From Candidatus Omnitrophota bacterium (GTDB lineage Bacteria; Omnitrophota; Gorgyraeia; VGKH01; JBHPFN01), in assembly GCA_042571725.1 (NCBI GenBank), contig JBHPFN010000005.1, positions 1,196 through 65,195 on the forward strand: DNA of 64,000 nucleotides, given 5' to 3'. Below, one piece after another: positions 6,001 through 48,000 of the stretch. The translations under genes were made by a program, and so were the position numbers. The notes under the pieces are model-generated. The model had not been told where the DNA came from. It saw nothing but the letters and a program-made list of their open reading frames with translations, and made no database searches. Positions within the stretch are counted from its first letter, which is position 1, and each line of letters opens with the position of its first letter.

Positions 6001-9000
6001 CGTCTTAACACCACGAGCGGCGTATTATTTGATTAGGGCGTTACGCGAAAGCGGCATAACCGTACCGCTGTATCTGCATACCCACGATACACGCGGCAAC
6101 CGGCAGCTGGTCTTATTAGAGGCGATCCGCGCGAATGGTCCGGACTACCCGATTATTGTTGATGTTGCTATCGGAAAAGGCAATCTCTCCGCACCCTTTG
6201 CCCAGCCTGATATGAGAGACTTCTTCTCTCTTGTCGAGGGAACCAATTGGCAGGGAACCCTGGAGATAGACAAGGCCGCATTACTCGAAACCGAAGAACA
6301 GATCGACGAGATCATGCCTGACTATGTACGACCACCGGCGTTAGGCTGGCGCCTAAGAAAGAAGATCGCTGATGCAGGCCTACCGGGAGGCATGAAGACT
6401 AATTTTGATAGGCAGATCGCAGACAATCTACCGGGGGTCCAGAAGGCAATCAAAGAGAGATTCGGTATTACCCTCTATGAGGCTGAAGGTACATTAACTG
6501 TTGAGGGTACTGAGTTCGTAGAGGCCATAATGGATTTAGTCTATGAAGAGATACGCTGGGTTAAAAAGGATATGGGAGAGATCTCTCTGGTAACACCTAC
6601 AAGCCAATGGGTAGGAGATCAGGCATTTAAGAATGTTATGTATGTCTGGATGGGTAAGGGCTGGCTTGATCTAGAAACAACCGAAGAAGGTCGTCTGGTA
6701 CTTAAGAAAAACAATAGTTTCCCGCTTGAGAGAGTCAAGCAATACTATACCGCACCTCTGCACCCAGATCTTCAGAATTATCTGTTTATGTGGGCTCAGG
6801 ATGAGCATCTGCAGTGGTGGTATCCAGAGGTCGATCGCTCACTCGTCCTCAAGGCATTTGAACTGGTACTTAAAAATGACCATGACTTTGATCTGGAGGC
6901 GGTGAAACATGGTTTAGGTCTGAATGAGGCACACCCGGTTGCCGCAGTAGATATTGATATGATCAATCAGGCATTGGTAAACTATCAACCTATTAGAGAG
7001 GTCTTGGATAAGCGGGTAGTGGATGTTTCGGTGGTGAAGGTAAGAGACATCTTCCGACAGAAGGCTAATGAAGGGCTTTCCAGACACGACCCCAGATTTA
7101 CAGTAAAGTTTGAAGAGAGAGAAAAAGCGAATGCTGCATTCGGTTCCGGAGAATATCCGCGAGAGCTTATTATTGAATTTTCTTGGGGTGTAGAGGGGCT
7201 GAATCTGCCGCTTACCCCAGAGGAGCTACAGAGCCGCATCGGTGAATTCAAATTACGCTTCCCTACATTCGATGGCTCTGACGAACACTTATTACTCGCC
7301 GCACTCTTTACCCGACCTGACCAGACACCTAATCTGTTTAATAGTATGCAGGAGTGGCTTGATAGGCTTAGTCAGATAAGAGAGGCCAGAGCAGCACTAA
7401 TTGATATGGGTATTGACCCGGCGGTAATAGACCAAAAGATCCGTGAAGGCCTGCCAGAAGAAAGTTCCGACCCAGAGACCCCATCGATGTTCACCGCCAT
7501 TAATATTTTCGGTATGGGCTTAGGGATTGTGGCGGTTATTGCCGGAGCAATAGACTTTTTCTTCAATGGAAATGCATCTGCCGATACTCTCTTTGCAGCT
7601 GCATCGGTTGCGCCGCTATTGCCAGAAAGCAGAAAGCTTGTAAGTAAAGCGATAGAGAGAGATGGTGCACGATTACGATTCTTAGCTAGTCAGGAGACAG
7701 TTATCGCACTGCTTTCTACAAGAATCAAAACAAATGTCGATACAAACAGCATGTTTGCGCTGCTGCGCAACAATCCTTTGTTGCGTCGTACCTATATTCG
7801 CGTGTGGAACAGAGATATGGATCAGTTAAGAGAAGGTCTTACCGCAGATTCAATCGCGGGTGGTCGATTTGATCAAGAAACAAAGGAAAGAATTGCTAAG
7901 GAGTTCGGGGAGTGGCTTAAAGCAGTGATAAATTTGGCCCTAGAGTTCGAGCAAGGAGAATATGATCATACTGATCCTGCTTACTTTAGGCTGCTCGATC
8001 ATTTTGTTACCACTGCCCGCATCATATCGATGAATTTAACCGGCCAGCAAGACCAGGAAATCGCAGACTACTTAGGATATCCTTGGAAACATGTAGTCTA
8101 CTTCTATCAAAATATAAGAATCCATTTAAGAGAATTGCCTGTCGACAAGCTTGAATATTCTAAGCTTCAAGGATTAAGCCTGCTTGCTGAGAGAGGCATC
8201 ACTCAAAATGTTTTATCTGAAGAAACAAGAAGCGATATCGCATCGATGCTGGAGAGAAAAAGAGGCAGAGCTGCACCTGAAGCTGCAGCGTCAATGTTTA
8301 CCGGATTTCCATTGTTTGATATTTCCATTGTATTGAGCGCTCTCGCTGCTTTATTTATTTTTACCGAGAGGGAAGCGCTTCCTAAAGAATTACCTGCCTG
8401 CCGGCAGGCAGGGCGTATTAAATTACGTAATTTATCAAATATACCGTCGAGAAGATTAAAAACATTTGTGAATAATATGGGGTCGCTGCGGCCGACAGGC
8501 TCTGAGCAAGCCGATGATTCCGATTACCTCTCCGTGGCTGGTGGGGTTGGAATCAGCTTGGCCGCAGCACCCCCCTTAGTAAACAAGGGAGTGCGGCACT
8601 CACTATTTATCATGATGAGTGCAGCGGCCCTGACTTTATTCTTCCCAGACATAGCATTTGCTAAAGGGGAGATAGTACGCTCAGTTGAGGCAATCAGTGA
8701 AGGCCAAAGCTTCGTTTCTTTCCTCTATATAATGGCATCAATAGCGTTACTCTTTGGGTTGTCTGCGCTCTCAGGCCCGCCACGATGCATGACCACCGGC
8801 CAGCCTATCAGTAATTTACCCTTCCGCTGGGTTAACCGGATACGAGCGCTACAATTAGGAATGATTGCCCTTATCAACTATCTCTTCTTTGCGAATAATT
8901 GGCATACCGCTGGTGGCTTAGGCGACCCATTATGGATGTTCCATCCGGCTGATCCTGCGTCAATGTTCGGTGCGTTTAATTTAATGAGCGTAGTGCTTGT

Positions 9001-12000
9001 TGCGGCCTCGCTGGGAACGATGATCCCAATTGCCATTGATTATACACCGAGCCTCTTAAGAAAACTCACAAAACACCCATTGATTGAAACTCTTAGCCTG
9101 CCGATTCTCTTTATTGCCCTTATGGGGATCATCTTCTACAAAAGTCTCTTGCGCAGGTTTATTCCCATAGCCAAGACCACCGTTTTAGGCGTACTCATTG
9201 CCCTCAACTATCTATTCTTTGCCCATGGCGGGCACACCATTGAGCATGGAATGATACTACATCCATATCAGGATTGGAATGTGACTTACCCGCTTATCTT
9301 CGGTAAGTTTAATCTATTATCACTATGTATTGTCCTGCTCTCACTCATTGTTACGGGTGTGATGGTGGGAGAGGATATAGTCACCGCCCTTAAGAAACTC
9401 AAAAAACACCTTTCATTCAACACCTTCATCCTACTGGCTATCTTTGCTGCTCTTGCTGAATTCATATTCTCAGGCCAGGTGAATAATCCTGAGCTTTGCT
9501 TTGCCGCAGCACCAATTGGACCTAGAAAGTCGAAGGCGAAGGCAAAGAAGCCTTCACGTTCTACAGCTTCGTCATCCGGCGGCAGCAGGTCTTCGCGTCC
9601 CGCAAAAGTAGTGGCTAAGGTTGGGGTTACGATCAAAGTTGATACCTATGAGGTTACTGTGCGTCTTAAGCAAGGTAAATTAAGCGATGAAAACTTAGCT
9701 AATCTTGAGGAGGGATTGACATATCTTAGAAGGTTTTACCGCCATGACGCAGCGAAGATTAAAGAAGTAGTGGTGGTTAAAGGAGGGCGTGCGCCGCTTG
9801 AGGTTCAGGTAAAAAGCGGTAGATGGTCTGTGCCGGTGAGGGTCGAGGCATTTTCTGGACATCGCTACATTTTATCTTTGTGTTTAGGAAAACCGTTCTT
9901 GCGAAAACTAATTTATATCTATGCTCGTAAAAAAGAATATAAATATCGGCTTGGAGACTGTGTGTACCCTGCGGCGGTAGAGGTAGCCTTGATGTTTATG
10001 ATGGCATATCGTTTCCTCCTAGTTGACCCTCCTCAAGCGCACCAGGTTATTTTGGATTCTTTTAAAACTTCAGGATTCTCTCGATATCCCGTCAACAGAG
10101 GCATGGCTTCAATCTTAGAACAGGTAGAGAAAAAAGGCGGGTTCGGACTGATATTTGAAAGCCCTGAGATATTTAAGATGATACAAAGGATGTATCCCGG
10201 GGAAGATGTATCAGATAAAGACAGGATACGCAAGGATGCAAAAAGAATAGTGGTATTTATCCAGCAAGTTATTGATACAAGCAGAGAGACTGATATTGAG
10301 GCTATAAAGAAAGACTCTATCGCACCTCAAGATGTTGGAAAGCTTGTCTGGTGCGATGAGCGGGTGCGTGTCAGAAATCTGTACGTGCGCCAGTCAGAGA
10401 TATCCAGACACAGGGTAGAGGCAATGGTTGAGATGATGGATTTGCTTTCTGAGGTTACTAATGTCCCGGTGATAAAAGCCCCAATTGTCGTCTGGGGAAA
10501 TGACCCGGAGAAGAGACACCTCTGCTATTTAGTAGCCGGCAACACTACGGCAATGGCTGTTTTTGAATCAAATATAGCCTGGTGTCCTGTGCACATGGCC
10601 ATGCTTCCTGATGATTCTCCTACCATGAATCGTATACGTAATCCTCTCCATAGCGTATATGACGTCGATCGTGTAGATAGGATGAGGCTCGTAGGGAAAA
10701 GGTGGCGGAAAAAGAGGAGTTTAAGGCAGAGAAGTCAAGCTGAGAGGACAAGAAGTTTAAACAGAGCTACCAGAAAAAAAGGCCAAGCCAAGAGAAAAGG
10801 CTCAGGAGGGAAAGGTGATGTAAGCCTCTTTACCCTCTTTGGTTTCTTCCTGCCATTTACCAGCATTCTTACCTTACTTACCGCGCATCTTTTACCGTTT
10901 GTACTTGGCGTTTCACAATCTACAGATCAATCTTTGGAATTATCTCTCGGTAATCTTTTGATGCTTCAGGTCCATGCGCGAACCGAAGGTGCAAAGAAAA
11001 ATAAGAGAGACAAGGTAAAAAGCGGAGGATTTAAAGCAATTGAGGGACGACTAGAGGAATGGAAAGACCTTGGATTTAGCTGGGTGTATCTTATGGGCAT
11101 TATGCCGTTGAGTAAATTTTCAAGAAAAACAAACCGTGGAGAACGGGGAAGCCGCGATCGAAGAAATAATTGTTACCGGTTAAAGAAATGGGGAAAATCA
11201 GTAATCGTAGTCAACCAAGGGTGGCCGGGCGATCCCGAAAATGACATTGGTTCAATCTTTGCAATTCCTGAGCTGACTGCCGTAGGCAGCGATTTGGGCT
11301 CGCTCGATGATTTCAGAAAGGTAGTAGAAAAGGCGCATGACCCGGAATTGGATATGAAGATTATTATTGATTTCGTGGGCAACCATACTGCAATTGATCA
11401 CCCGTGGGTTTTAGAGCGCACAGAGTATTATAAGCACAGAGTTCTCTCGAGAGGAGAAGAAGATCGAAGTGATTTAGAGCTCCTGAGCAATAATCCTGGA
11501 TATTTCGTTGTGCATTCAAAGTCTTTAGGTAAAAGAGTGCTTGTTCAGCACGGTAGCGATCCTTCTTGTCCGCCACCGTGGTTAGATACCGCTGAATTAG
11601 ATTACAATAATCCTGAAGTCATACGAGAAATGATTGGCGTGCTGAAATTCTGGGCAGCACTTGGCGTGGATGGGGTACGCTGCGATTTGGTTACGCTTGT
11701 ACCTAAGGATTTTTGGGAACAGGCTATTGCAGAGATTAAGGCTGAATATCCTCGATTTACCTTTATTGCAGAGCACTATGGCCCAGAGGGAAGATATGTG
11801 AGGTTAGGGTTTGATTTTGAATATGATAAAACCCTCTATGAGCGCCTGCTGAAAGAAAGTTATCCAGAGCCGGGTATTAGAGATTGGCTGAATTTCTTGG
11901 GTAGGGCAAGAGCCTATCTTGACGGGTCAGTGCGCTTTCCGGGAAATCACGACGATGGTTGGTGGATGGCCGGAGCGCGCGCACGAGCCAATGCGCTTAT

Positions 12001-15000
12001 CGCCAGCACAATTCCGGGGATGTCAATGATGCACCTTGATCAGTTAGAGGGTTACGCGCGTCAGGGGATTACGAGGATTGTAAGAAGCGAAGCATCAGAT
12101 GAAGCACAAGCTGCATTTATGCAAAGAATTGCGCGTATTGCGAGCGACGAGATATTTAGCTACGGTAAGTTTGACGTCTTAGAGACAGACGATGGTAATT
12201 CAACCTTTATCGGGTATACGCTTCCCCATAAGGGGAGGCGGGTAGTAGTTGCGGTAAATTATTCCGATGGCTTTGGTGCGGCTAAGTTTTCAACGTTTCC
12301 TCCAAGGTTCGTTAACTCAGCATTTGCTGGTAAATATATAGTATTGAGAGATGTATTGAATGGAAAAGTGTATGTGAGAAACGCTAAAGAGATTATCACA
12401 GAAGGAATTTATGTCGAGCGCGGTGGTTTTGAGAGTCATATATTCTTTATCGAACCAATTTCTGATGAAGCCGGTACGTCATTGTCTGACAAATTTGGGT
12501 TAGACGCTATAAATCAATCAGTATTCGAAAGGGCTCTTGCAGAAGGCGCAAGCTCTGAAGCGAGTATGTTTGTGTTGCCTGATTTCTTAGGAGTTTCGTC
12601 TTTATATAATCAAATGGGGCCGCTGTGGCAAGGCATCAGAAAAATTCTTGTTTTACCTCTTCCGTGGCTGGTGGGGAGCAAGAATACTGCCACAGCGGCC
12701 CTTCGTTCGTTTACCTCTTCCGTGCCTGCCTGCCGCCTGCCTGCCGGTCAGGCAGGGCAGGCAGGGCTGGTGGGAACGATGGCCGCAGCGGCCCTATTAT
12801 TTACTCCGGGCATCGCTGAAGCAAATGAATTAGATCAATCTACATTTATTCTTGACATGCCTGGTGTTTCCCTAGAGATTACCTTAGTGCCGCTTCTCTT
12901 GCTTGCTATCGGTTTATTACTACTCGTAGGTGCTCTTCGGGAATTCAGAGGTCAGCTAAGATATCATGCAGCCCGAATTGACTTTTGGATATGGCGCCAC
13001 CTATTTCATACCGCAGGAGTTAATTTCTTAAGGCAAGAGAAAAAATTACAGAGCCTCGCAAGAGCATGGGGGCTCACAGATATTGATATCGTTCGATTAT
13101 ATGTAGAGACCTTGCCTGAGCAGTTGCCTGACTATTATGAATTTGACCTAAGAGTTGCATTGCAGGATTTATATGAACATTTTGAAGAAATTCCTCAATA
13201 TTTATTCGGTAAATACCGAATGTTGGGCGAAATGGGAGGCGAGGTGAGTCTGGCCGGAGAAATCAGTCGCTTAGCATTCCAGGGCGTTAGCACGAAATAC
13301 ACAACAGCAGAGGCAATGGCGTGTGATTTCTTAGCTCGCTATCCTCAACTTCAGAATTATATTCCTAAAGATTTTATGCGCCGAGCCCTGAAGCAATACC
13401 CAGGCATCGAGGAAATTCCCGGAGTCTTGCGGCATTGTTTGCGTTCTGCGCTTATTGCTTTGGAATTTACAAAGCTTATGGATTTGCGACCTCGGTATTT
13501 CAGAGAGGCTCTAGTAAAAGCATTCTTTTTACACGACCTAGGAAAGGCGCACGAGAGCCTAAGAGGTACCGCAGCCTCACCGATAATGGTAGAAGAACTT
13601 GAATATGCTAGAGCAAATCAGGAGCATCCACATAAAACGATCGCGATGCTTAAGAAAAAGGTTCGATTAAGTAGCAATGTGAAAGCGGCAAAACTTATTA
13701 CTTATTTAATCGAGCATCACGAAGAAACACCTTCGTGGAAAGTAGGACACGCAAAGGATGTACGAGCATATGCTGCGCGCATCTTCTCTTTAATCGATAC
13801 CCTCGATTCCTTGCGTGATTGCCGAAGACCGCATATGCGAAGAGGAGGTCATTTCCTTTCAGTAGATGATTTGCTCGATATTCACTACAGACTTCTTTTA
13901 AGAGACGGCTCAATCGATAGAGAGATGTTCGAAGCGATTAGGGAGCTTTGCTACCGTGAGCCGGTGAGATCCTTATTAAGAGAAACTGAGCCCTATGTCA
14001 GCCTTAGTAACGTGGTGATGTTGGCAACGGGTGTTGAAGAGATGGCTCAGCGTTGCATTCCTTACTCTCGGCCCGCCACGGGAACGGCTATTCGATTACT
14101 TACCCGTCCGCTTGCAGAATTTAGCACGCGCTTTCGCCGTGACGGAAACTTCCCTGACAGTATCCACTACAGAAAAGGCCGCACCGGCCAGGTTGTTAAA
14201 GCGACGAGACTTGATCCTCTTCTATTAAGGAAGATGGGGGTCAGTATTTGTAGGGGAGAACTAGCTGATGACCGTGAACAGGCAGAGTATTATCAGTTAC
14301 GCAGAGAGTTTACCGCATTTGCCATCGAGCGGCGTTGCAGCAATCCTGATCAGCCTGAGAATGTAATTGAGATAGAAGAGCTTTTAGGCCAGAGTCAAGA
14401 GGAGCGAGAGGTATTTATTACTTGTTTAGTAGAGTACCAAAGCATTTTAGAGCATTATGCTCCTGAAAGGGCAAAGGCCTTGGCACTTTTGTATAAGCCC
14501 CTCTTTTTCCCCGATGAAGAAATGGAAGCAGAGTTGTTCTGGGATAACTTCGGCCCGCGAAAGAGATTAATCGTAGAGCCGCTCTCAAGAGAGGCATTGC
14601 GCGGTCATCTACGAGCAGTACCGACATCTGATACGACCTGTTCAGGCAAGACTACCACAGCACTGAGTCAAGTGCGGCAGCGTCCTGACTTGTTTGGTTT
14701 AATCGTAATCAAAAATGGCAAACCCGAACTGAGCCCGTTCTTTATGGATAACTTCTTTAAGAATAAAATGAAAGCGGGAACACCAAAAACGCCGGAGAAC
14801 GAAAACGAATCCTTCCCGGATATATACGGCCGGCACGATATTGATTCTCCGGATGCCTACCGGTGGGATTTGATTGAAGAGGCACTCACCAATTTATTCT
14901 TATACGGCAGGGCAATGATTCCATCAGACTATGATTTTGTACATAAGCATCGCGGCGAACTTATAGAGGCAACGCTCGAGCCGAATAAGGCCTTGCCCAT

Positions 15001-18000: not shown

Positions 18001-21000
18001 GCTTATGGGCATAAATGTAATCGGCGCTGATAAGTTCGAGGCAAGTGTGAGAAAGTGCATCGACGCCGGTATCGGGGATGAGAAAACAGTATTGAGTACA
18101 GAAAAGCCTGGCTGGCAAGATAGAATTCAAGAAGTCTTTGGCGAGGACAAAAAAGCTCAGTTTATACTCGATGCCTGTGGAGCCACAGGGGTAATTAAGG
18201 ATATGGAAGGACTTCTTGAAAATAATGGTTTGTTCCTCTTGTTTGGCTTGATGGATAAAGAGCAGGGAATTCCTGATACTAGTAAGTCACTAGGCGAGTT
18301 TGTCTTGAAGCAACATAAGAAGCTTCGTGCTCGCGTTAAAGGAAGAACTATTGATATCATCGGCCTTTGCGGTAGATCGGATGAATCGTGGCACTGGGTT
18401 GTAGAGGAGCTGAGGAAAACGGATAGTAAGTTTGCAGAACTTTTACTTTCCGGAGTGTATGATTTAGGCTCTATTGAAGGGTTTGTGAGAACGCTCTTTG
18501 CATACAATGATTACAGTAGGGATGCTTTTGAGTCTCTATTTGGAAAAGGCAAGATTACTATGCTTCCATTCTCCGCAGCGTTAGTCGAGGCCTTCCGGAA
18601 TAACGATGCGAATGAGGTTGCTAAAATAGTATTCCCTCAAGAAATTCCTTTCAGTAGAAGATTTGACATTGTGGATGTGCAAGACCAATTCCCTCGAGCC
18701 CCTGTGCTTAGAGTTTTCGCTCCTATAGAAAAAGCCGATAGCAAAATAGGTGTAGCGAGTTCGCTGTTGGGAGCGATATCAACATTTACATCTTTATTCG
18801 GTTTTGGTATGCCGCTGGGTGTAGCAGCAGATGCAGGGGGCAGGAATATCGAAGTATCCGCAGAGCTTGCGATTAGCCGTTATAAAGCACTGCTCGAAGG
18901 TCAGGCTGGAGAGGTTCTTTTAGAAGCAAAGCTCAGATTGTTTTACCAAACGTGGCGCGGTGTTGGCCTTACACCTCCTGCAGGGATACGCTATGTCTTC
19001 TGGGCACTGTTAGGAGATAGAAATCATCCTATGGCAGAGATGGTATTGCGGCATCATCCTCATTTTGATTCGTTGTCAGTAAGAGAAAAATGCGATGCGA
19101 TCGATGCATTAGTAGCCGCAGAACAATTGAACTACGGTTCAATAGAAGAAATTAGACTTCTAAGTTTGGTTATCAGAGGCTTTGCTGCTGATGCGGCCGA
19201 AGGAGAAGTAGCGAACTTTGTTTCAATCGGTTTTGGCAGCATGCTTCCTTTAGGCAAGATTTTTGGATTGATTGCATTCTTGCTTCTTGCACTAACCCCG
19301 ATCGCACAAGCTGATTCCTTGCCGGAAAACAATATCGCCACACAACAAACTAGCACTGATACAAGCGCAACATCTACTCGATCATACACGCGGGTTATCC
19401 ATCCACAGTCAGATCAAGAATATTATTTCTATGAAATACGCAATAAGATAGAACAGAAAGTAGCAGAGGCATACGAGGCGCGTAGGACAAGAGCGTATTG
19501 GGAGAATGTAGAATTAGCAGCTTTGCTTTGGATTGAGCATGTAATCAAGCAGAGAGAATTAGATAATATACTGGTAAGCCTTGTGGATGCGCGTGTACTC
19601 ACCGAAGAATTTTTAGCCTCCCCGGATGCAGAGCGTATTTTGTCTAAACAAGAAGAATTTTTAAGAAGTCGAGAAGCATACGTGGCTATGGAGAGGGCAG
19701 GAGACGTTGACAGCCTCGCACAGAGACGGTTATCCAGAACCGTCCGTCTCAGAGTTCATGATTCTACCGTAGTGAAGCCGCAGGAAATCGATAGCTTAGC
19801 AGCGGTAGCCGATAGTATTCTTGATACGTATCTGGCTGCTACCTGGGTATATCTCGAAGCAGGCGATCCTGAGAAGAAAAAGCAAGAGTTTCTTGCTGAG
19901 CTAATATCCTCAGCGTGTGAATTTTACGGTCGGCCTCTGCCGCCGGCAGATAAAGGATACACACCCGTTGAGCGGATTAAGACTCAAGAAGTAGACGATA
20001 AAAATGATGCTCAACAACCAGAGCCGCAGCCTCGCAACAATCCGCCAATTCCCCCTAAATCCGGCATGGTAGGTTTGTTGTTTGGTAGAATGCTGTCTTC
20101 CTTGCGGCGTAGAAAAAGAGTTTCTAAGCGCGACAGTCAAGTAGCTGAGCCTAAGCAGGTCGCTAAAGGAGCACCACATTTTATTTTAGCCAAAAAGGAA
20201 GCGCTTCCGTCGGGAAGCAGCATTTTTAATCTGAAAGTTGCAATAAGTTTATTGACTTTAGGAATAACAGGACTATTATATAAATTAGGGCTGCTGTGGT
20301 ATGATCTTACGCAGATCATAACTTCGATTACCTCTTCCGTGGCTGGTGGGGTTGAAGTTATTATGACCACAGCAGCCCTATTTGTTTTGCCTATCGCATC
20401 TGAGGTTTCTGACCTCTTCCGTGCCTGCCTGCCGGCAGGCAGGGCTGGTGGGGTTAAAATCACTATAGTTGCAGCGGCCCTCTATTCTTTCTTAATACCT
20501 CTAATAGGGACGTTTCTGACTGCAATCGGAAAACTGTCCCTCGCGGGGACACACTTAGCTTTGATGTCAGAAACGTCCCTAAGAGAGGTAGTAACCTTTT
20601 CTTTCCTCACCCCTGGCCTTGTCTTAGGGGTTTCCGCAGGAAACGATATTTCCGCAAACCATTCAATGGTAACAGTCACTTCACTTTCCGAATTAAGGGA
20701 ACTGTTTGTATCAGGCCGCATCGGTAGACCCGAATGGAAAAGGCTGCTTGATCGCAATCCCCACGGCAAGGAAATTGTGGCAGGGATTCTTGTTGAACTC
20801 ACCAGAAGAGTTACCAAAAAAGAAGATGAACCGTTAGAATTCGCTGACTTTATGCAACTGCGTGACCCTCATTTTAGAGATGCATGGGTAGGCGGACACA
20901 ACCTTTCCGGTTTGCGAGGGGTATTCGACAAAAAATCAGCCGGCAGCGGCAAACCATCGATCGTATTCGGGCTTGAATACACCGGTCTTATAGCGGCGCA

Positions 21001-27000: not shown

Positions 27001-30000
27001 CTTTGGAAACGAGGCCCTAAAGGGTTGCTCACCGCAAACAGTGCAGCACTCACCATCTGACACGATGAGTGCAGCGAGTGCTGCGGCTCCCGCATCTGAA
27101 CCAGCAGGATCTCTCGGCAATGTTCAAGAAGGCATGCATGAATTGTCGGCTGCTGACTTTGAACCTTCAACGGATCAGCAGCATGAACGTTCTGAATTTT
27201 TAAAGCAATTAATGCATAATTATGCCACTCATTACCCGCTTGTCACGCAGGAAGTTGATTCGCCGGAATTTAATGAATTTCTTACTGAGCGGCGCGCAAC
27301 GATGCAGCAAGGAATTAGAGACGGCTCGGGAGCGGTCATGCTGTATCGTCATCCAGGTGAATCTACCCTTGGAGGATTTATCTTCTTTGTCCATGATTCA
27401 GTACAGGAAGGGTTAGAGGTAGTGGTAGATTTATGGGTCAGTACAGAGATAGAGCAAGAAGAAAGAAACTTAATCATCGCGGCTCTTTTAACAAAGGCTA
27501 TGGAAACTGCACGTGTTCAGGGTCAAAGATATTTTGAAATATATGTTCTGCCTGACGATACGCAGCTGCAGCAGGTAGCTGGTCGCTTTGGGTTTGGGCA
27601 GGGAAGAAGCTACCTTGATCAGTCTGGAAATTTATTTTTGATTGCATATCGTAAAGCAATTAGTTCTCCGTTAACCGAAGAGCGCGCAGCCGATAGGACT
27701 CAAGAAGCTCAGGAGCCGCCTGAGCTTAATCGCTTAGGTTCTATTATTACGGTGCTTGATCCCTCAATTCCTGCGGTAGTGGTACCCGCGCGGTTGGCGA
27801 GTACGCTGGAGGCTGTATTTGGAAATCCACAGGTGGCAATGACCGCAGAGGAGTTCTGGGACTTTATGCAGCATTTACGCACAACCGGCGCATTGCCAGA
27901 ACTCTATAGTATCATATCCGAGGGTCATCAAGCTGCGCAAGAGGTCAGAGAAGAGCTGGCGCGTTGCGAAGGATTAGACGCGATAGAGCAAGAGGACCTG
28001 CTAGGTTCTGCGTATGGAGTTTTTGTCTGGCTTGCCGAGGTAGCCTGGAAGCATACGCTTAATCAGAGACCAGATCTGCGCAGACGCTTATCCGGATCGG
28101 CTACTGACTTTATTGCTCATCTCCCGGAGCATAATCACGTGACAGCGAGGCTGCTAGAAAGAGCGGGGATTTCTCCTCTTTTCTCAGTGGACGAGGCTCA
28201 CTTCTTTTTTCTCCCGTATGTGTTTCCTTTTATGATTGAGGATAATGAAACTTTCAGCGTACGCACTATGTTCTTCAGAAGCACTGAGGAGTCTGTACGC
28301 ACAGGAATGAATTTATTATTTGAGGCTGACGGTGCTTCGCAAAGACCTATTGCAGCCGAGATGTTCGAGACATTCCGTACGCTGCAGCGTGCCGTCTTAT
28401 CCCGTTTTCAGGGAAGCTATAGCGCTGAGTATCGGGAAGAAATGGATGCGTTGCTGCGCAAAATGGCGAAGAATATTGCACTGTTGCGCAACAGGGGAAA
28501 TCAGCCACCTGATGAGCCGCATACTCCAGATTCGCCACGTGGCGGGCCACAGGCTAATTCTCCGGTCTGGATAACCATCTTAGCTGTATTAGTTGGGCTA
28601 GCGATGTATTATCTTGCGGGCGGATCTTCAACTGAAGAGGCGCCACAGGTTTTGATGGGCTTGTCACTTTTCGGTGTAGGCTTAACTCACGGCGACCTTC
28701 CACCATGGCTGGTGAGACTTTTAAAGAAACTTAAGGTAACCGATGATTTGAATGGCACAAAGATATTCCGCGGGGAAATTTCTGCATGGGCAAAGGCCCA
28801 CGGTTTATTCTTAGACCAACCGTGGTATCGCGATGTGCGAGAACATGGCTTATATCTGAGAACGCGGGAAGATGCTTTGCGGCTCTGGACGCTAAGGAGA
28901 ATTGAAACCTATATTCTTGATTACGCTAGAGAAATCGATCGGGAAGCAACAACAAAAAGATGGATGGAGAGTTTAAAGGCAGCGGCACTCAGAGACAGCG
29001 CGCAGATACGCCAGAGGCTGCGAAGAGAACAATTATCTCTCACAGAAGAAAGGCGTGTAAAACGAGCATATCATAACATTCAGAAGAAATATCTTTGCGG
29101 CTTACGGGGCCCGCATCATGGAAGAGAAGCTACTGACGCGCCGTTTATCTGGGCGTTAAAGGGAAGAGTATTTAAGCAGGTACAGCAGAAAAGGGCCGGT
29201 AAGCTTTTTGGCGAAATAGATATAACCGATATGACATTAGCTGATCTTCCTATCTGGCCGGTAGAAGGAGGTAGGATTAGAGAAGATTTGATTGAGTGGA
29301 TGGCAGAGAGAGAAGGTGCGCCTCCTGCGCAATATTATGCAGCGCGCAAACTCTCCATTAATCAAATCCTACAAGAAGAACCCCCGGCCGGCCAACTCGA
29401 ATTACCTTTCGGCAAAACAATCATTCCTTTCATAGTTACAGTACTTTCCGGCGGCATAAGTATGCCGCTTGGGGCAGCGGTAGAGGGTGGAGAATCTGAT
29501 GTCCGTCCATCTTTGTCTCCTATCGAGGATACAGTTACTAGAGACCTTAATAAAGATAATGTAGTGTTAGTCGGATTAGCAGACGAAAGGCTTGCTTTTG
29601 CCGGTGAGACAGCCGGAATCAATGCAATAGCCGGTTATCTAAACCGTGATTGCAAAGATGCAGAGGTTACAATTTTAGACATGCAGCTGGATTCTTTGGA
29701 AGATGTTATAGAGACAATAAGAACAAAGAAACCCGCCATATTGGGTATCGCCGCCAGGATTAATACATTTAACCAATTGCTACAGTTGACTCAGGCAATA
29801 GCAAAGGAGATTCCTCAGGAAGAACAGCCACTTATCGTGCTCGGAAACGCCTTGCCTACTTACATAGGCGATGTGATTCTACAGCGATTCTTGCCTTTTG
29901 CTGTGCTTGGTCTAGGAGAAGGCGAATTGGTAGTAGCTGATCTCTATCGGTATGTGAATGGGCAGATTGAACTATCCGAGGTACGAAATATTGCCTATCA

Positions 30001-33000
30001 ACAGGATGGTGCAATGGTTCGCAATCCAAGAGTCCTGATGCCTGTTGAGGAACATGCACTGCCCGATAGGTCAAGAACAAGAGAGTTTTATGAAAGAGGA
30101 GGCTTGGCGTATTTTGAACAATCACGAGGCTGTCCACGAGCAGCATGCACATTCTGTGCAAGTAAGGAGATTCTTGGGTCGAGAATAGCAGGAAGAGGCT
30201 GGCGACCGCTCCCCTTAGATACCGTCATAGAAGATTTAAATATCTTAGAGCGCATGGGTGTTCAACAGGTACGCGCAGCTGATGAAGAATTTTTACCTAT
30301 CGATCCAAAAAGAATGAAAATAGCCAGAGAATTTGCAGAAAGAAAGATTGCAGTGGGTAATGCAGTTAGATTCGACATCATCACAAGAGTAGATTCAATC
30401 TACAATGAAAATGATACAGAAGAAGAAGGACGGGAAAGGGTAGAAACACTGCATCTTTTAAAGCGCGCCGGGCTTGTGAAGATATCATTAGGCGTAGAGT
30501 CGTTTTCTGAGGGTCAGCTGAAGAGATATAACAAGGGCATCAGCACAAAAGAGATTGAAGAGGCAATAAGAATAGTAAAAGAGTTGGGTGTTGACCTCGA
30601 GATAGGTTTTATTCCTCTCGATCCTTTGGCGAGCTTCGCAGAAGTCAAGGAGACCCTCGCCGGACTCGAGAGGACGGAAACAACATTAGAGGCCTCTACT
30701 GCCTTTAAGGAATTAAGAATTCAGCACGGGGCCACGTATGTTGGGCTTGTACGCAGAGAAGAGCAAAGAAGCGGTATCGCAATTCTTGGCCGTCTCGATC
30801 TTAATTCGTTAAATTATCCCGTGGTTCGTTACGCAGACGAGAGAGTTAATATCATTGCACGTAATATGAGAAGCTGGAACGAAAAAGTGTATCAACTCTT
30901 TTATTTGCTGAGAATATACACACAATACTCTTCGTATGAACAAGGTCAAATAGCTGCATTTAGATATTTTGATGCCGCGTTATTCTTTGATCTCATCAAT
31001 GACCTGCGTTATTTAGAACTTGAATTATTTAAGGCGATTATCGCAGAACTTGAAAGAGACGACGATGTACACACCGCAGATATTCGCATACGAACTATCA
31101 TTGGACAGCATGAAGAAAGAAGATCGGAAAAAATCAGGATGTTTTCGTCTGATCTTGATGCAGCTAGACTGACAAGCGCCACAGGAAAAGAAGGTCTAGG
31201 CGCTGATTTGAGACATGCGATTGCCAATTACTTTAGTTATTTGACTCCCTGGTACCGGCTGGCACAGCGATTCACTGACCAGGCATTAGTACACACCTCA
31301 ACACTAGCAGACTACCAAGAGGCGGTAGATGGGGTGATGAGTAGCTTGCAAACAGCTACCGCAGAGCAACGAACGCGGTTCATCGAGGATCTTTGGCGCA
31401 TGGTATCGACATATGCTATTGAGGTTTTCCCACCAGTTTCTGCTGATGGTTCCCGCGTACTCTTCTACGATTATAATCAGGCGAGCGTATTAGATATGCG
31501 TGTACCTAATCAAGGAGGTCCGATTGGGATACGTAGGATATTGTCCGGTAAGCCCACCACCGCCTTCAGTGCACTACGTTTTTTGGGAGTTCAAGCTCAG
31601 CGCAGCGGTTATCCCCATGAAGAGGCACGAGCTCGATCGGTCATCCACCTAGATCCACGTCGAAGGATTGCGCTCATTGCTCCCTCTAGAGTGACACCTG
31701 AAGACATCGAACAAAGTTTACAGGAGGTATCCGAGACTTTAGAGAATATGCAGCCGGGTAGCATATTTGTATTTGGTGGTTCTATACCGGAGAACTTACC
31801 GCCAGAAAGAATCAGCGATCTCGTTAAGCAAGCAAAGAGAAACAAAATATTTGTTGTTGTTGACTTTAGTTCGAAGTTAACTAAACAGCAAGCATTGGCA
31901 GTTCTTACCGCCACCCCGGATGTGATCAAGCCTAATCTATACGAGTTTGAGATGGTATGTCGCTCTGTTGGTTTGATTGAAGAGGATGCGAGCCTACGTG
32001 CTGATAACGATAGAGGGCGCGCAGAAATACTGCGCTATGCCAGAATTATTGTTGAGCGATTTAGTCTTTCTGCAGCGATCGTTACGTTAGGAAGTTACGG
32101 TGCTCTTGTTTATGCCCGTGACGAGTCATATTATGGAAGTTCTTTAGTTTCTACAGAGGAAATCAGGGGATTAATCGGTGCGGGAGATGCATTTTGCGCG
32201 GGGATAGTGTACGAACTTTTGAGGCAAGGCGTCATGCATACCGAAGAGATCGATTGGAAAGCGGTGCTTTCTATGGGATTAAGAGTCGCCTCAGCTAAAG
32301 TAACGCTACCGGGATTAACCATGCCTTCGATGGATTTAGTGGAAAGGCAAGAGATAAGTGAATTGAGACCCATCTCAACTACTACAGCTTCCGGCGAGAC
32401 TAGTAGTTTTACCTCGGTTGGCATAGGACTTTTTGAAATCGTAGAAATTGTTGTTCGTTGGCTGAGTTCCGGCGGCATAAGTATGCCGCTTGGGGTGGCG
32501 CACGGCAGCTCCGGAAATAAAAAGAAGGGTTCTAAGAGCCCAGAAGCAGAATTGGCACAGTGGCAACGTCAGTATGATGATTTAGAACGCGAGATTGCTG
32601 TTCGATTCCCAACGAACGTTCCAAAGGGTATCTCTGGAAGGATGGAAGAAGCGCAGACAGCCATCGCTTCTGCCGAGAGTGTTATCTTATTTCCCGAGCA
32701 GCTTCGGAAAGGAAGGGGCGGAAAAGTAAAACGCCGACAATTTCGCGCCGCAGGACGACAAGAAGTTTCGGTTACAAGAGAATTCCATGAAAGGTTAGGC
32801 GTAGTCAAGCAGAGGGTCAAGGCGCTTAGAGCTGCGTTGGCCGAATATGACCAAGGACAAAATCCGGAAAGAAAGCGCATTGAAGACAGCACTCAAGAGG
32901 TGCTTACTGAGATCTGGGATCAGGTTGACCGGGCGAAAAGCGAGACCAAGTTTTCTTTCTTGGAAAACTTACGCTTGAAGATTATCCAGTTTACCGCCAG

Positions 33001-42000: not shown

Positions 42001-45000
42001 TGCACAACGTCTGGATGCAGGTGTTCCGAGAGAAGATAGGCGATGGGGAGAATGGGCGTCGTTTGGTTCTGTGGGCAGTCTAGTAACACGCGAGCAGGAA
42101 AGCTGGTTTAGAGGCGATGGCTCAACATTCGTTGAAACAGAAGAGAAAGAAACCGCAGACTCTCCAGAGAAAGCCACAGCTATTCAGGAAATCCGCGAAG
42201 CATTAGGTGCTACGATAGAGGCTTTAGACAGATTAGGGTCATCATTCCCTCATGAAGATAACTATTGGCCCCTTAGAGATCGTCTAGAAACGCTTTATGC
42301 TCGGCATGCGAGTGTGCTTTCACCTGCGCAAGAAGAATTTCTTAAGCATATAATCACCTTACTGCTTGGTTCAACTATGCCAGCTGAGATAGCCAAAGAA
42401 ATCAGGGATCAACTTGAACCTTTTTCGCAAGACACTATCGGAGTTAAAAAAGCCGCTGCCCCCGAACAGAAAGCCGCAGCCATCCGGGAAATCCGTGAAA
42501 CATTATACGCTGCTGAAGAGATTTTGCGAGGACTAGGATCTCCCCGCGAAGGTACCTATCGTCGCCTTAGGAACATCCTAGAATTGGTTTACCAACGGCA
42601 TGTAAGCGTGCTTTCACCTGAGCAAAGAGAATTTCTTGAGCAAGTAATCACATTACTACTTAGCTTGACTATGCCAGACGAAATAATCAGATATATCAGG
42701 GATCATCTTACACTCTTTTCTAAAGAGGCTGAAAAAGGAGCGCTTGCCCCGACACCACCGTCGGAATCAGCCCCGACACCGGAGGCATCAGACGAAGACA
42801 TATCTTCTTTAACTCCTCTGGAGAGAATCGAAAAAATAGTAGTGGCAATTAAAGGAAATATAGACAGTTTCCATAAAAAGCTGGGGAACCCTCAAGCAGC
42901 ATTCGAGGAGCTCGATGCCGCAATGGGACAGTGGTATACTCTCGATCCGTTAATACAGGAAGAAGGGTTGACAACTGAAGAGGCCATCGCTGCTTGTATG
43001 GGAGACGAGCTTCGACGCAAAGCCGGTCTTGGCCTACGTCAATTAGCAGACGTACAAGCCAACCTAAGAGGTATTCGCAAAAAAGGCGCATTAAGCGCGG
43101 ATCCAGACCGTTTAGAAGAAGCAATACCAATATATGAAGCTGCATTGTTGTTTAGGCCAATGGAAGATCATAGCTCACGAGCTGACATTAATGCGCATCT
43201 TGGCGAGGTAAGAGCCGCACTTGAAGCATACACGCAACCCCATAGAGCAATTCAGGACGGACTAGGTCGGCTGCATGCTTCGACGGATAGGCTTCAAGGT
43301 GCCTTCAGAGATGTGGTTGGATTAGGCCGGGAAGAGCGTCAAGTCTCGGCTCTTAGCCAAGAGGCTATATGGGCTGTTGAAGACGAATTATCATATCTAA
43401 ACCGTTGTTTGAGAGTATTCCGTCAATACCCTGATGAGGATTGGGAGCTTACGGATGCCGAAGTAGCAGGAAAGAGGATTCTGGAGAAAATACAAATGGA
43501 GGATGATGGCTATCACGATTTGTCTTCATCGCTAAGAGACTATGTGGTTGAAGCGTTTTATAGTTTAGGCCGTGCATTGTGCGGAGATTTTACATGGTTT
43601 GATGAAATAACAGACAGAATAGAGATGGAAACGGAGCCATATAGCGAAGGAGAACTTGATAATTTAGAAAAGGCATATGAATATTTTGGACATGTAGTAA
43701 GACTTGCAACTTCTGGGGATAGTAAAAGAGATGCTGAGCTTGCCATGGACCAGATTAAGATAGTTCTTAGAAAGCTCAGGCCGCGTAGTAAAATTTTAGC
43801 TGATGATGAACCGCCGGCAGACCCGACCCCAACGCCACCGTCGGGACCGGCTCCAGGATCTTTCTTAGGAGTAGGAGGAGGAGCTGCCTCAGCGGCATTG
43901 GATGACTTACTTGAAGAAGAGGGGTCTGCTCCGCACCAAGAAGATGCGGGACCTGCTGCGTCGGCTGGCGAAGTGCAAGAAGACACAGGGCCAGCGGCTA
44001 CGCCGACTGGCGAAGTGCCTGCTACGTCGACCGAAGCCGACCCGGCTGGGGAAGCTCGAGCATTATTAATACGTGTCAGAGACACTTTACAATCATTAGA
44101 GAGGTATGATTACGACACCTATGCTCGACTAGGGCAAGAAATAATAAGTTTCCGTGATGCTCATTCTGGTTTGTTGACAGCGGGACAGCTTGAGGTCTTG
44201 AAGCAAGTGAGTACAGACTTGCGTTTCGATGAACCAGAGTCTTCCATAGTAGGGTATATCGATGGCAACCTTGATCGCTTTCCAGAAGCAGTAGTTTCTG
44301 AGTCTGAACCCGAAAGCGAACCAGGAGAGACTGTTGTTGTTCAAACAGGGCAACCCGACAAGCTTCTTACTGCTATCTTTGGTCAACCTACTTTTGCTGA
44401 AGCGGCTGAAGAAGGGCCGGTTGCTGATGCATCTATAGAGGAGCCTTCGGCCGAGGCTGAGTCAGCAGAAGAAGCACCACCAGCTTCGCCTCGCGACATT
44501 ATGTTCGCCTCACAGGATGTAAACGGATATCTACGCTCAGCAGAAGAAGAGATTGAGGCGCAGCACTACGATGACGCAGAGGGGACTTTAGATTCTGCAA
44601 GAAGAGCCCTTGGACGTTTACGAGAGATGGATGAAACACACCGGTCAATAGCCGGATATGAAACAAGGATTGCAGCCTGTGCTGCGGATATTAGTGCGGG
44701 CCAGGATAGACTCGCTGAATATGATTCAGGTGGAACTGCAGATGACGAATCAGATGATGCAGCGCTCTCCGGCATAGAAGCAACGATCGTAGAAATAGCA
44801 GAGGCAATCGAGGAGAATGTGCAGCTTTTCCGAGACCATCTATCAGGCAATCGGGGAGAAGCCCGTGGCTATCTTGATTTGGCAATGTCCCAGCGGCGCA
44901 GGCTTGTTGATTTTATGCGCCAGGAAGGTCTACAGAGCGAACAAGATATTGCCCGCGAGATAAGAGGAAGCATTCGAGGAAGGATGACTAACGCCTTACG

Positions 45001-48000
45001 CAGCCTCGCAGGTCAAAAAGCTAGAATAGGAAGCCTTAATCGCCATGAAGAGGTGCGTGATGCTCGAGGCTTGAGAGATGGTGTAGCAGTTTATTTAGAT
45101 GCATTGAAGTTTATGCCGGGTGACCTTTCTATCAGTCGAGACCTTAGCTTAGCAAGAGGAGCACTTGGAAAGCTTGGGTTACAGGATGAAGAGCCGCGGG
45201 ATTATGGCCCCAGAAGGAGAAGAAGAGGCAGACAACGCGGAGGAGCAAGGCGAGGGGAACAACAACGAGCCGCTGATTTAGGAAGAACTACCGATGCCCT
45301 CGCACGCCGAGCAGAAGAAGAACGGCAAGCCACAGGTTTTAGCCAAGAGGATAGGTGGGCTGTTGAAGACGCATTAGGCTATCTTAAGAGAAATTTAGAC
45401 ATGTTTCGTTCATTTCATGATAAGGCGAATCTTGAAGAAGCAGAAAGACGTGGGCAAACAATATTGGAAAGAATAACTAAGGCTGATGGTAGTTATCATA
45501 ATTTACCCTCTTCGCGTCGATTTCGAGGCGATGTTGTTGAAGCACTCTTCGACTTAGGCCGCGCCTTGTGCGGTGATTTTGAAAGCTTTAGAGACATAAG
45601 CAGCAGAACAAACGAATATACAGAAGAAGAATTAAATAATCTATCCAAGGCAAAGCAGTATTTTGAGGCGGTAAAAGGTTTATCAGTATCTCATGATTTT
45701 ACATGGGGCGAAGCTGATTTAGCCTTGACTTTGATTGGGGATGTTCTTGCTGTGCGACGAAGCGCAACGCCTACTGATGAACCGTCGGCAGGACCTGCCT
45801 CGGCGCCTTCGTCTGCACCGGAATGTGCGGCATTGGCGAGATTTACAGCGACGCCGACAGATGAAACTGTTGATACAGGAGAGCAGGAAGGCGATAGAGT
45901 AGATTTAGTTATTCTTGCTTCAGATTTTCAACAGGGCGTTGTTAGAATTGATGAATTTAGAAGGTTATTCGAGTCAACATACGTAGCAGAAGAACGGCTC
46001 GATAGCGAAGGAGTTCTCGCCCTTCTATGGCGACACGGAGATGCCCCGGGAGTTATTCAATGTACCTTTGCTTCAATCCAGGCTGTTGTGTCAGAAGGGG
46101 TGATTACAGATGTTGCTGTGGAACTAATGGCAGAGCTAGGGGTTCATATTGGAGGAGGTTTTGATTGGGATTGGGCAGAGAACTTCTTTTCTAGGAAGGG
46201 ATACGGTCTGAATGTTGCCAGGGCAGTGCACCCCATATTAGAGAGAGAATCACATACTTCGCAAAGAGTGGAGAAAGTAGAAGAATTAGTTACCGCCTGG
46301 CCTCTGAAAGATAACCAAAAAAGAGAGCTTAAAAAGGCTATTCGTGAGGCATGGCAAAGACTAGCAAGAATCAGCGAAGAACGGCGAGCATCACGGGATC
46401 CTGACTCAGGTCCGGGCAGCGATTCAGGCTCAGGTGACACCTACTTTGCTATCTTCTTTGCGGTTATGCTGGGTGATATTCTGATGAGATGGTTATTGCC
46501 AGAAGCAGACAGCAAAGCCGCTACTGTCGTATTAGGCACAACGCTTGCTTTCATTCCACCGCCCTGCCTGCCGGCAGGCAGGCCTTCGGGTTCGGTTTCA
46601 GGGAGAGGCGAGAACGCATCCGGATTAGATTTACTAAGATTTAGAGATGTAGTTTCGCACATTACTCACCGCGGAGAGAGAGAGTTCATTCCAACGCTGC
46701 GTCGACTGATTAGAGATGCAGGTGTTCAGAAAATCGAGTTTTTACTTGATGACCCAAGCAAGGTCGCTGAAATAAAAAATAAGATCACAGAGCAGGTTGT
46801 TGACTACGCGGATTGGAAAGATATCTTAGCGCTTATCCGCAGTGTATTGTCAACTGAATACGGAATTGATATGTATGAAGTCTTCAGCGCGATAGGAAGA
46901 ACGGCGCGACGACTAAAGGTTGAATATTTTGAGGTAGATATCATTACAGCGTTGCGTGCATTAGAATTCCAGCTGGCACCTGACGATATGCCGGTGTATC
47001 GCTGCGTTGAAGAGCGATATGCAGGGCTACCCGGACTGGATGTATTCAATGGATCAAATTGGGGTATTTCTATGGTAGGCCGCCAACTTGCTGAAAACAA
47101 TGCGAAGGGAGAAAACGTCGTCATGATCGAATCGACTGTCGGCGAATTACGACAGAGAGGTGTGATCATACCTGAATTTGGTTATTCAATTGCTTTGGTT
47201 CAAAAAGAGGGTGAGGCAGGTAAAGTCAATCATAGAGTCGTAAAGAGATTTCCGAACAGTGGCATAGGCGGCGGAGCCGGCGCTGTGGTGTTTGTTGCGC
47301 TCGCGCTGGGTGAGTTATTGAAATGGATATTCCCAGAGACAGCACTGACTACTTTTAGTTGGTGCGGTACTGTTAGCGATAGCAACCCTTTTAGGGCCTC
47401 GTTTACAGATGCCAGTGCTGATTCAGCTCCGATTCAGCTTGCCGCCGGCGGAGGGATAATCAGATTTTTAGCAGGAGATTGGAAACTAAAGAAGAGACGG
47501 AAGCCAAGAAAGACAAAAAGAAAAGCTAAAGAAAAAACTCCCTCTGCTGAATTAAATAAACGCCAACAAAAGGAAAAAGACAAAGGGTTAAGGGCTGTCG
47601 CTGAATTGCTCGAAAGAGGCACGGGACTGGCAGAGCAGGATAATGTTAAAGAAGCTCAAGACAGGTACGAGAGGGCCCAAAGTAAAAAGAACGCTTTAGT
47701 TAAAGCTCATTTGTTAACAGCAGATGAACAAAGAGAATTAGGGGAAGGAATTATAGAGTTGAGCAGAGCCATTGGCAGAGCAAAAAAGAGAGAGCACAAA
47801 CAACGCACAGGTGCTGTTGCAGAGGTGCGCGAGAAATTTTTAGCTGAATTTACCGGAGCATGGGAGGCGGCTCCTACCGTAACAGATAAGTGGCATGTGT
47901 TAAACAATGTACCCAGAGACCATCAGCGCATGGCTGGGGTCCGCGAAAAAGTTGCTCAGCTAACCGAAGATATTGCACAAGCGCAGACACGCCTGGGAGA

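Follow-up and report, generated by a model that had tools for sequence, protein, structure and literature searches.

Analysis of a 64,000-nt stretch of a Candidatus Omnitrophota genome (contig JBHPFN010000005.1, positions 1,196 to 65,195; here termed the window), which is spanned by a single giant open reading frame (ORF), indicates that a 20-nt perfect palindrome recurring within this ORF, CCTGCCTGCCGGCAGGCAGG (here termed P), is probably a minimal, stop-free, selfish or neutral palindromic DNA insert that resembles the Rickettsia palindromic elements (RPE) in its behavior. P consists of two abutted 10-nt arms and is free of stop codons in all six frames. Its size of 20 bp and the identity of its sequence across phyla are the features that make it surprising among translated or extragenic palindromic inserts. 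The original prediction, made from the letters of the window, had put forward three possible roles for the palindrome: a translated selfish insert of the RPE kind, an mRNA hairpin that paces ribosomes, or a recognition site for a protein or nuclease. The first of these is the one that best fits the data reported here, which include empty paralogous sites in the window, a phage homolog that lacks the insert and loop insertions in GatB and RfbB proteins. Neither the empty sites, nor the hairpin with which P is associated in the window, nor its cross-phylum distribution were part of that prediction.

Exact copies of P are located at positions 8393-8412 (copy 1), 20424-20443 (copy 3) and 46563-46582 (copy 4) of the window, and a 41-nt nested version lies at 12725-12765, in agreement with the coordinates first proposed. 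The two codon phases previously noted were also recovered: copy 1 and the nested version start at codon position 1 and are read, respectively, as PACRQAG and PACRLPAGQAGQAG, while copies 3 and 4 start at codon position 2 and are read as ACLPAGR and PCLPAGR. The three exact copies are the longest perfect palindromes of the window, and dinucleotide-preserving shuffles of the window contain none. The nested version can be decomposed into CCTGCCTGCCG, CCTGCCTGCCGGTCAGGCAGG and GCAGGCAGG, that is, the first 11 nt of P, an inner P with one extra T and nucleotides 12-20 of P; nesting of P within P at the same off-centre position (CCG^G) is also found at two loci of other genomes (L018 and L042; loci outside the window are designated by L numbers), there without the extra T. 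Folded as RNA, a lone P forms an 8-bp stem closed by a CCGG loop (-13.9 kcal/mol), and the 41-nt version is the core of a hairpin of about 90 nt (z = -3.8, -49.8 kcal/mol). The view that these hairpins are not terminators holds, since no T-tract follows any of the four copies and the ORF continues through them. Six further window sites match P with at most six mismatches, against about 0.75 in mononucleotide shuffles, which constitute a weak null model; these 20-mers, with five to six mismatches (positions 3017, 6375, 27547, 34041, 40038 and 62532), may be decayed older copies of P. A different palindrome, TAAATTACGTAATTTA, lies at 8419-8434, 7 nt past copy 1.

The direction of change, from uninterrupted to interrupted sequence, can be read from the window itself. 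Both copy 3 and the nested version sit precisely between CCTCTTCCGTG and GCTGGTGGGG, and uninterrupted junctions of these two sequences (here termed empty sites) are found 82 nt upstream of the insert at 20424 and 58 nt upstream of that at 12725. More specifically, the motif formed by TTACCTCTTCCGTG followed by GCTGGTGGGG is contiguous at 12653 and 20328 and is split exactly at the boundary between its two parts at 12711, by the 41-nt version, and at 20410, by P. Once P is deleted, the 24-nt site of copy 3 presents no mismatches to the sequence 94 nt upstream. The same nucleotides are nevertheless read in different frames on either side of the inserts: the empty site at 20328 is read as TSSV/AGG and its filled counterpart at 20410 as DLFR-ACLPAGR-AGGV, while the filled site at 12711 is read as FTSSV, the 41-nt insert and LVG, and the empty one at 12653 as LPLPWLVG. 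Hence, the reading frame was restored locally around the inserts, rather than preserved. Deletion of P alone leads to a stop codon after 2, 17, 4 and 20 codons at 8393, 12725, 20424 and 46563, respectively. On the other hand, the ORF stays open upon deletion of a 99-nt composite on the forward strand at 12667-12765, made up of a 58-nt repeat unit and the 41-nt palindrome, and upon deletion of a 102-nt composite at 20342-20443, also on the forward strand and made up of an 82-nt repeat unit and P, in which case ITSSVAGGVKITIVAAAL is restored. These excision outcomes imply that selection has maintained the open frame around the inserts, and P must be translated if the giant gene is expressed.

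Presence and absence of the insert can likewise be compared among paralogous cassettes of the gene, some of which contain it and some of which do not. The cassettes at about 8.3 kb and 20.2 kb have in common GGAAGCGCTTCC and a copy of the hairpin described below, with P at different positions, and the cassette at 20180-20240, the counterpart of the region of copy 1, has GGAAGCGCTTCC but lacks P at that place. The GGAAGCGCTTCC sequence is itself a palindrome, located at 8371-8382 and 20197-20208, upstream of P and the hairpin in these cassettes. In addition, some 160 nt at 12650-12810, encompassing the tandem hairpin motifs and the 41-nt palindrome, are stop-free in all three forward frames, and the hairpin motif and P are both stop-free in all six.

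The sequence interrupted by P in these two cases belongs to a conserved hairpin, here termed M, the filled copies of which were analyzed with P removed. The consensus of 15 M copies comprises an 8-bp covarying basal stem of unrelated sequence, a conserved upper stem and an apical loop GUG^GCU, with CCTCTTCCGTGGCTGGTGGGG as the invariant apex. Basal and upper stem cells are paired in 88.9% of cases, compared with 70.6% in shuffles, none of which (0/500) reached as high a value, and with 46-63% in slid controls; the covariation score was 0.496 versus 0.153. P is found at the point marked by the caret in both window cases and in L228, a giant ORF of another contig with a GC content of 0.41, which carries CCTCTTCCGTG-P-GCTGGTGGG and encodes a protein with no detectable similarity to that of the window. 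A second copy of M in the L228 gene lacks P and has 43 upstream nucleotides identical to those of the filled copy. That P should twice have hit an identical position in so rare an element as M cannot be due to chance. A covariance model of M identifies only five copies in the window, two of which are the filled ones used to train it, and it has no hits among the Omnitrophota loci that carry P. The empty motifs, both on the forward strand, are located at 12653-12676 (TTACCTCTTCCGTGGCTGGTGGGG, read in a third frame as LPLPWLVG, 70.3 bits) and at 20328-20351 (read as ITSSVAGG, in the same frame as in other giant ORFs, 69.9 bits). A third hairpin copy, which was outside model training, lies on the same strand at 8493-8580, with a core, CCTCTCCGTGGCTGGTGGGG, that has a 1-nt deletion (8523) and is read as YLSVAGGV (48.6 bits). 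Three of the M hairpins lie at window positions 8493-8580, 12622-12708 and 20297-20385. The original prediction placed all four P copies in junction cassettes, and with respect to M this stands for two copies within the hairpin and for copy 1, which lies 130 nt upstream of it, but not for the copy at 46563, which has no M nearby.

Beyond the window, 13 metagenome contigs contain an exact match to the 20-mer core of M, in coding and some non-coding contexts. Giant ORFs with M are present at L159, L176, L203, L220, L225 and L228, the contigs of which measure 97 kb to 1.27 Mb, and M is also found at L179, L192, L196, L200, L217 and L243. The TSSVAGG reading of M in giant ORFs uses identical codons in every instance, these instances being few and partly ascertained by exact-match search. 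M was not found in viral contigs, we found no published description of it, and Rfam 15 yielded no match at gathering score in the window and only tRNAs (E up to 0.1) in seven M-bearing loci. The outer flanks of M are often GCGGCAGG and CCTGCCGC, which are hexamers of the P arms. The 3' half of M is GCTGGTGG, a sequence identical to the Escherichia coli Chi octamer, directly 5' of which P is inserted; in the window this octamer occurs on the forward strand at 8537, 8909, 12667, 12766, 20342, 20444 and 25106, and on the reverse strand at 44477, with about one occurrence expected per strand, and its excess on the coding strand may be a coincidence. Finally, TTCGACTTCGCTCAGGG- and TTCGACAAGCTCAGG-type sequences, read as FDFAQG and FDKLR, adjoin M or P at L228 (13601-13660), L090 and L076, and are presumably akin to short repeats of many metagenome-assembled genomes.

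A search for the 20-mer in other genomes, as had been suggested, places P in a much wider context. Exact P is present in at least 120 stretches from at least 120 species genomes. A hand tally of record titles among the matches listed assigns 38 loci to the Bacteroidota, 36 to the Candidate Phyla Radiation (CPR/Patescibacteria), 12 to the Gammaproteobacteria, 10 to the Omnitrophota and 8 to the Planctomycetota/Planctomycetes-Verrucomicrobia-Chlamydiae (PVC) group, and none to the Bacillota, the Actinomycetota or the Archaea. P was also found in 35 stretches of IMG/VR viral contigs, compared with none for each of two control palindromes of the same composition and five for a phase-shifted (GCCT)n variant, and it seems reasonable to postulate that it moves between genomes. 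The flanks of P are unrelated between loci, the only preference being for A on the left and T on the right (24% of copies) or for G or C on both sides, which means that the 20-mer itself is the unit. Its two-unit symmetric (2+2) form overwhelmingly outnumbers other unit numbers, and an origin by expansion of the common CCTGCCGGCAGG core was rejected on the grounds that the one-unit form is almost absent. No published mention of the 20-mer, of its half-sites or of its three peptides was found in the searchable literature, and the literature on palindromic inserts yielded nothing equivalent to P.

Other repeats accompany P at some of these loci. A second palindrome, CCGCCAGCTGGCGG, is present in eight copies in seven P-bearing loci of different phyla (L011, L015, L016, L032, L040, L108 and L110), against about 0.01 expected, and CCGATAGCTATCGG is found in three Bacteroidota loci (L052, L062 and L070); P may be one of a guild of GC-rich palindromes shared across phyla. 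Some viral contigs carry three to six copies of P (L141, L148 and L149 are from one 29.5-kb viral contig), in one viral contig P belongs to larger repeated units of about 60-100 nt, and L127 also carries the P variant CCTGCCTGCAGGCAGG. Many intergenic copies lie within tandemly repeated heptamers or octamers, such as AATTACG, TCTAAAA, CCTCACC, TGAGAGG and GAGTGAT(C) (L101, L082, L080, L045, L129, L121/L150, L144, L050, L058 and L142).

P is depleted from genes. Only 23% of its copies are genic, compared with 79% of random positions, and the open frame spanning the position has a median length of 100 aa for P and 348 aa for random positions. Yet P is translated in frame in FtsK-like proteins, in GatB, in RfbB and in CPR membrane proteins, as well as in phage proteins, mostly as LPAGRQ. 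This is the third phase of the palindrome, and it predominates among the credible genic copies of other genomes; taken together with the two phases of the window, it bears out the proposal that nucleotides, and not a peptide, are conserved. Compared with solved homologs, P adds seven residues in GatB and six to eight in RfbB, in variable loops. The predominance of LPAGRQ suggests that proteins filter the frames that survive, which would speak for protein-level selection of P as a useful linker peptide rich in P, A, G and R. The reading of three peptides from one DNA sequence and the non-coding location of most copies make this highly improbable, and the same applies to contamination and to an artefact of assembly or adapters, the latter having been named as a way in which the prediction could fail. 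Some copies do lie near contig ends (L026, L036, L085 and L089). The assemblies that carry P come from many laboratories, however, include isolates such as those of Winogradskyella, Flagellimonas and Longitalea, and were built from long reads in some cases and from short reads in others. In addition, the 64-kb ORF is open only through compensating changes around P, which would not be expected of an artefactual insertion. To our knowledge, P matches no common adapter.

Comparison of empty and filled sites at other loci (L106, L083, L093, L004 and L037) reveals the addition of exactly 20 bp, without target duplication. No flanking direct repeat is seen at 98/168 copies, and the distribution of such repeats is control-like except in heptamer-repeat contexts, in which apparent 7- or 14-nt repeats account for flanking direct repeats of at least 7 nt at 7/168 copies, against 1/1,676 controls. 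In two related phage contigs, a 42-nt insert containing P (TCLPDLPAGRQDRQ) lies within a gene for which a homolog with about 75% identity on another contig lacks the insert. DNA resembling tRNA holds 12 of 170 P copies, compared with 13 of 850 controls, an enrichment of about four to five times, with insertion points in the D, anticodon, variable or T loop; loop assignments and the removal of P-on-P matches were done by hand in this analysis. The hosts are usually partial copies of tRNA or 5S genes, located 17-300 nt from the intact gene (L106, L083, L030, L037, L015, L004, L001, L118, L093, L145, L122, L152 and L085). Most of these tRNA-like hosts are partial, and ARAGORN gained a single tRNA call (L030) after excision of P. 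In L145, a viral contig, P occupies the variable loop of a full-length tRNA-fMet, and no match to a P-free version of this region was found in a phage database.

These insertion data also bear on the possibility that P is a scar of DNA repair, in which broken DNA, for instance where RNA genes are highly transcribed or at the apex of a hairpin, would receive the same short sequence on both 3' ends, which would then anneal through the self-complementary CCGG, the resulting palindrome often being accompanied by a local duplication. Such a process would be compatible with a perfect palindrome inserted precisely and without target duplication, with the nesting of P at its CCG^G centre in three genomes, with the enrichment in tRNA-like DNA and with the low copy number per contig. 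It would also agree with the occurrence of an uninterrupted copy of the insertion site within 600 nt for 21 of 126 P copies, against 3 of 630 controls, and with repeat units that, together with the palindrome, twice add up to a multiple of three in the window. No enzyme that adds a CCTG-type sequence is known, however, and the fixed unit number of P would not be expected from untemplated or slippage synthesis. Moreover, identity downstream of the duplicated core is only about 56%, so that the duplications of the window may, by inspection, be old paralogous cassettes. We regard a repair origin as quite unlikely.

The location of P beside membrane segments raises the question of whether it is instead a functional cis-element under selection, either as a hairpin of the mRNA with a role in slowing ribosomes or in protecting or processing the transcript near transmembrane (TM) segments, or as a palindromic target of a dimeric nuclease or DNA-binding protein, in which case its recurrence across phyla would reflect a conserved partner. 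All four window copies are 6-21 residues away from a TM-like segment (copy 1 follows one by 9 residues and copy 4 by 21), while a segment of this kind is found within 25 residues of only 17% of positions. Furthermore, the sequence of P is perfectly conserved between divergent flanks, the covariation of M indicates that structure matters at that spot, and P would increase the predicted stability of M from -7.8 to -28.8 kcal/mol, or to -49.8 kcal/mol in the nested form. On the other hand, there are only four copies for about 60 distinct TM-like segments, and other giant-ORF loci with M are devoid of P. Elsewhere, P is mostly intergenic, with a background-like orientation of the adjacent genes; other copies interrupt pseudo-copies of tRNA and 5S genes or lie in random loops of housekeeping proteins. 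It has no Rfam match, and no candidate partner gene recurs near it. A functional role of this kind appears unlikely, and the ribosome pacing that had been proposed is not supported. A terminator or 3'-end role, in particular, was rejected: beyond the lack of T-tracts, intergenic copies show background-like orientation classes and no excess in convergent or 3' spacers.

Among known systems, P is closest to the RPE in behavior and to the repetitive extragenic palindromic (REP) sequences in size and in the lack of target duplication. Like P, the RPE are non-coding palindromic repeats without internal stops that occupy intergenic regions as well as ORFs, where they lie in frame and are translated in tolerant regions, and they are also reported from RNA genes. 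P shares with them the in-frame translation of a palindromic repeat, but it is set apart by size and hosts: the RPE are about 100-150 bp long, form several families (RPE-1 to RPE-8) and are essentially restricted to Rickettsia and close relatives, while P has 20 bp (41 when nested), crosses phyla, occurs in phages and has no host labelled Rickettsiales among the matches listed. The length of P, in addition, is not a multiple of three and demands frame compensation. The REP sequences and REPINs, which are mobilized by REP-associated tyrosine transposases (RAYT, also TnpA-REP, of the HUH Y1 type), resemble P in being short (20-40 nt), GC-rich hairpin palindromes that cause no target duplication and are thought to move as single-stranded hairpins, and some insertion sequence (IS) elements target REP hairpin loops. 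The REPs, however, have a GTAG/CGTC head and are species-specific, extragenic, present in tens to hundreds of copies and accompanied by their cognate RAYT gene. Neither the ends nor the flanks of P show such a tetranucleotide; P is apparently low-copy, crosses phyla and enters genes, and no RAYT-like gene was found in its 8-kb flanks.

The remaining parallels are more distant. The GC clusters of yeast mitochondria and the byp elements of Magnusiomyces capitatus are also short, GC-rich palindromic inserts of AT-richer genomes, coding regions included, which are apparently mobile by an unknown mechanism; unlike P, they are organellar, measure about 30-50 nt and form several families, and byp elements are skipped by the ribosome, whereas P must be translated for the ORF to be continuous. 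Miniature inverted-repeat transposable elements (MITE), such as Correia/NEMIS, are likewise non-autonomous inverted-repeat inserts sometimes found within transcripts and ORFs, but they consist of an internal segment bounded by terminal inverted repeats, generate target duplications and are at least 50 bp long, while P amounts to two abutted arms that are not flanked by a target-site duplication. Finally, the GC-rich 8-bp stem with a tetraloop is reminiscent of intrinsic (Rho-independent) terminators, from which P differs in lacking a U-tract, in its location inside an ORF and in the distribution of its intergenic copies, which favors neither convergent spacers nor the 3' ends of genes.

If P is, as we favor, a selfish or neutral insert of the RPE kind, it would enter DNA as a precise 20-bp insertion without target-site duplication and, being stop-free, could persist as translated filler in tolerant parts of genes once the +2 frameshift had been repaired. 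In the giant gene, four insertions would have survived beside TM segments, including two in the apical loops of M copies that were already there; the inserts would contribute PACRQAG or CLPAGR to the protein, and local restoration of the frame would leave 4-9 codons beside P out of the ancestral frame. P would be purged from most genes and would survive where a few extra small residues are tolerated, and it is more likely to be selfish or neutral than useful. Insertion might take place through an activity supplied in trans and acting on single-stranded or hairpin DNA, by analogy with REP/RAYT or IS200/IS605 systems, although this is a guess. The apical-loop cases, which involve M, P itself and tRNA loops, hint at such an action on hairpin or single-stranded DNA.

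Several observations weigh against this interpretation. A general targeting of hairpin loops by P was not supported: when 60 nt were folded around 168 P-excised sites, the junction fell in a loop in 32% of cases, against 34% in controls, and in a loop with a stem of at least 6 bp in 9.5% of P-excised sites and 5.8% of controls, although M, the tRNA cases and P itself do show a loop location. No transposase or other family recurs in the 8-kb flanks of P: when the 1,999 ORFs of 155 loci were clustered all against all, only phage structural and housekeeping families emerged. Most contigs, considering both 8-kb blocks and viral contigs, hold a single copy of P, unlike the proliferating REPs or MITEs. 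No ortholog of the giant gene was found with which the four window copies could be compared directly for presence and absence. The perfect identity across phyla, lastly, could reflect a strong functional constraint, such as that on a binding site or a structure. A bolder version of the favored interpretation, which we consider possible but doubtful, would have P as the smallest mobile DNA yet seen: a 20-bp nano-element, transferred horizontally among distant phyla and phages, inserting precisely and without target duplication, preferring the exposed hairpin loops of DNA and RNA genes (the apex of M, its own centre and the D, anticodon, variable and T loops of tRNA) and belonging to a guild of palindromes with CCGCCAGCTGGCGG. 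Giant Omnitrophota-type genes would then act as sinks in which these hairpins and M become translated and remodel TM-proximal junctions.

The gene that hosts P in the window is unusual in its own right. The ORF extends on the forward strand from position 2 to 64000 and is open at both window ends (>21,333 codons); the frame starting at base 2 comprises 21,333 codons without a single stop, compared with 658-1,656 stops in each of the other five frames. Clusters of TM-like segments alternate along the ORF with enzyme-like domains, and Pfam matches comprise alpha-amylase, HD, ADH, metallophosphatase, B12-binding, radical SAM, PfkB, proline dehydrogenase and PALP domains, all of them divergent and mutually unrelated. 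Its internal repeats have diverged to 30-50% identity. Homology searches gave only distant matches, the best being PutA, with 28% identity over the proline-dehydrogenase region, while a few matches reached 29-46% identity. Giant proteins of the Archaeovorin type, which combine many TM helices with intracellular enzyme domains, including radical SAM, and are very divergent in pairwise comparisons, have been described in the Omnitrophota. The host gene resembles this type in exceeding 10,000 aa, in its many TM helices and in the diversity of its intracellular enzyme-type domains, such as radical SAM. The descriptions of such giant genes compared here make no mention of palindromes, hairpins or frameshifts.

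No homolog spanning any P site was detected in word-indexed protein searches or in a full HMMER search, and blastp of the window protein against the other giant ORFs returned no match. The word-indexed search, however, failed to return the public giant ORF of L228 when queried with that ORF itself; such giant proteins are evidently not returned by the index, and its negative results on homologs are thus of little significance. Elsewhere in the ORF, a 34-nt stretch is 94% identical between 29446-29479 and 32467-32500, in the same codon phase, with a weaker copy at 18793-18826; it contains the near-palindrome GCGGCATAagTATGCCGC and may constitute another nucleotide-level repeat. An all-GC hairpin, CCCCCGCCgccaGGCGGGGG, is located at 54512-54531.

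If P is mobile, it would lower the known minimum size of a sequence that spreads between genomes, and it would extend translated palindromic inserts, so far mainly a feature of Rickettsia, to the CPR, the Bacteroidota, the Omnitrophota and phages. P would be a marker for horizontal exchange between episymbionts or predators and their neighbors, and it could explain why metagenome-assembled genomes contain pseudo-tRNA copies and odd insertions of small size. It would also show how giant genes tolerate frameshifting insertions through local compensation, and the presence of M in several unrelated giant genes raises the question of whether nucleic-acid structures, beside protein motifs, organize these enormous ORFs.

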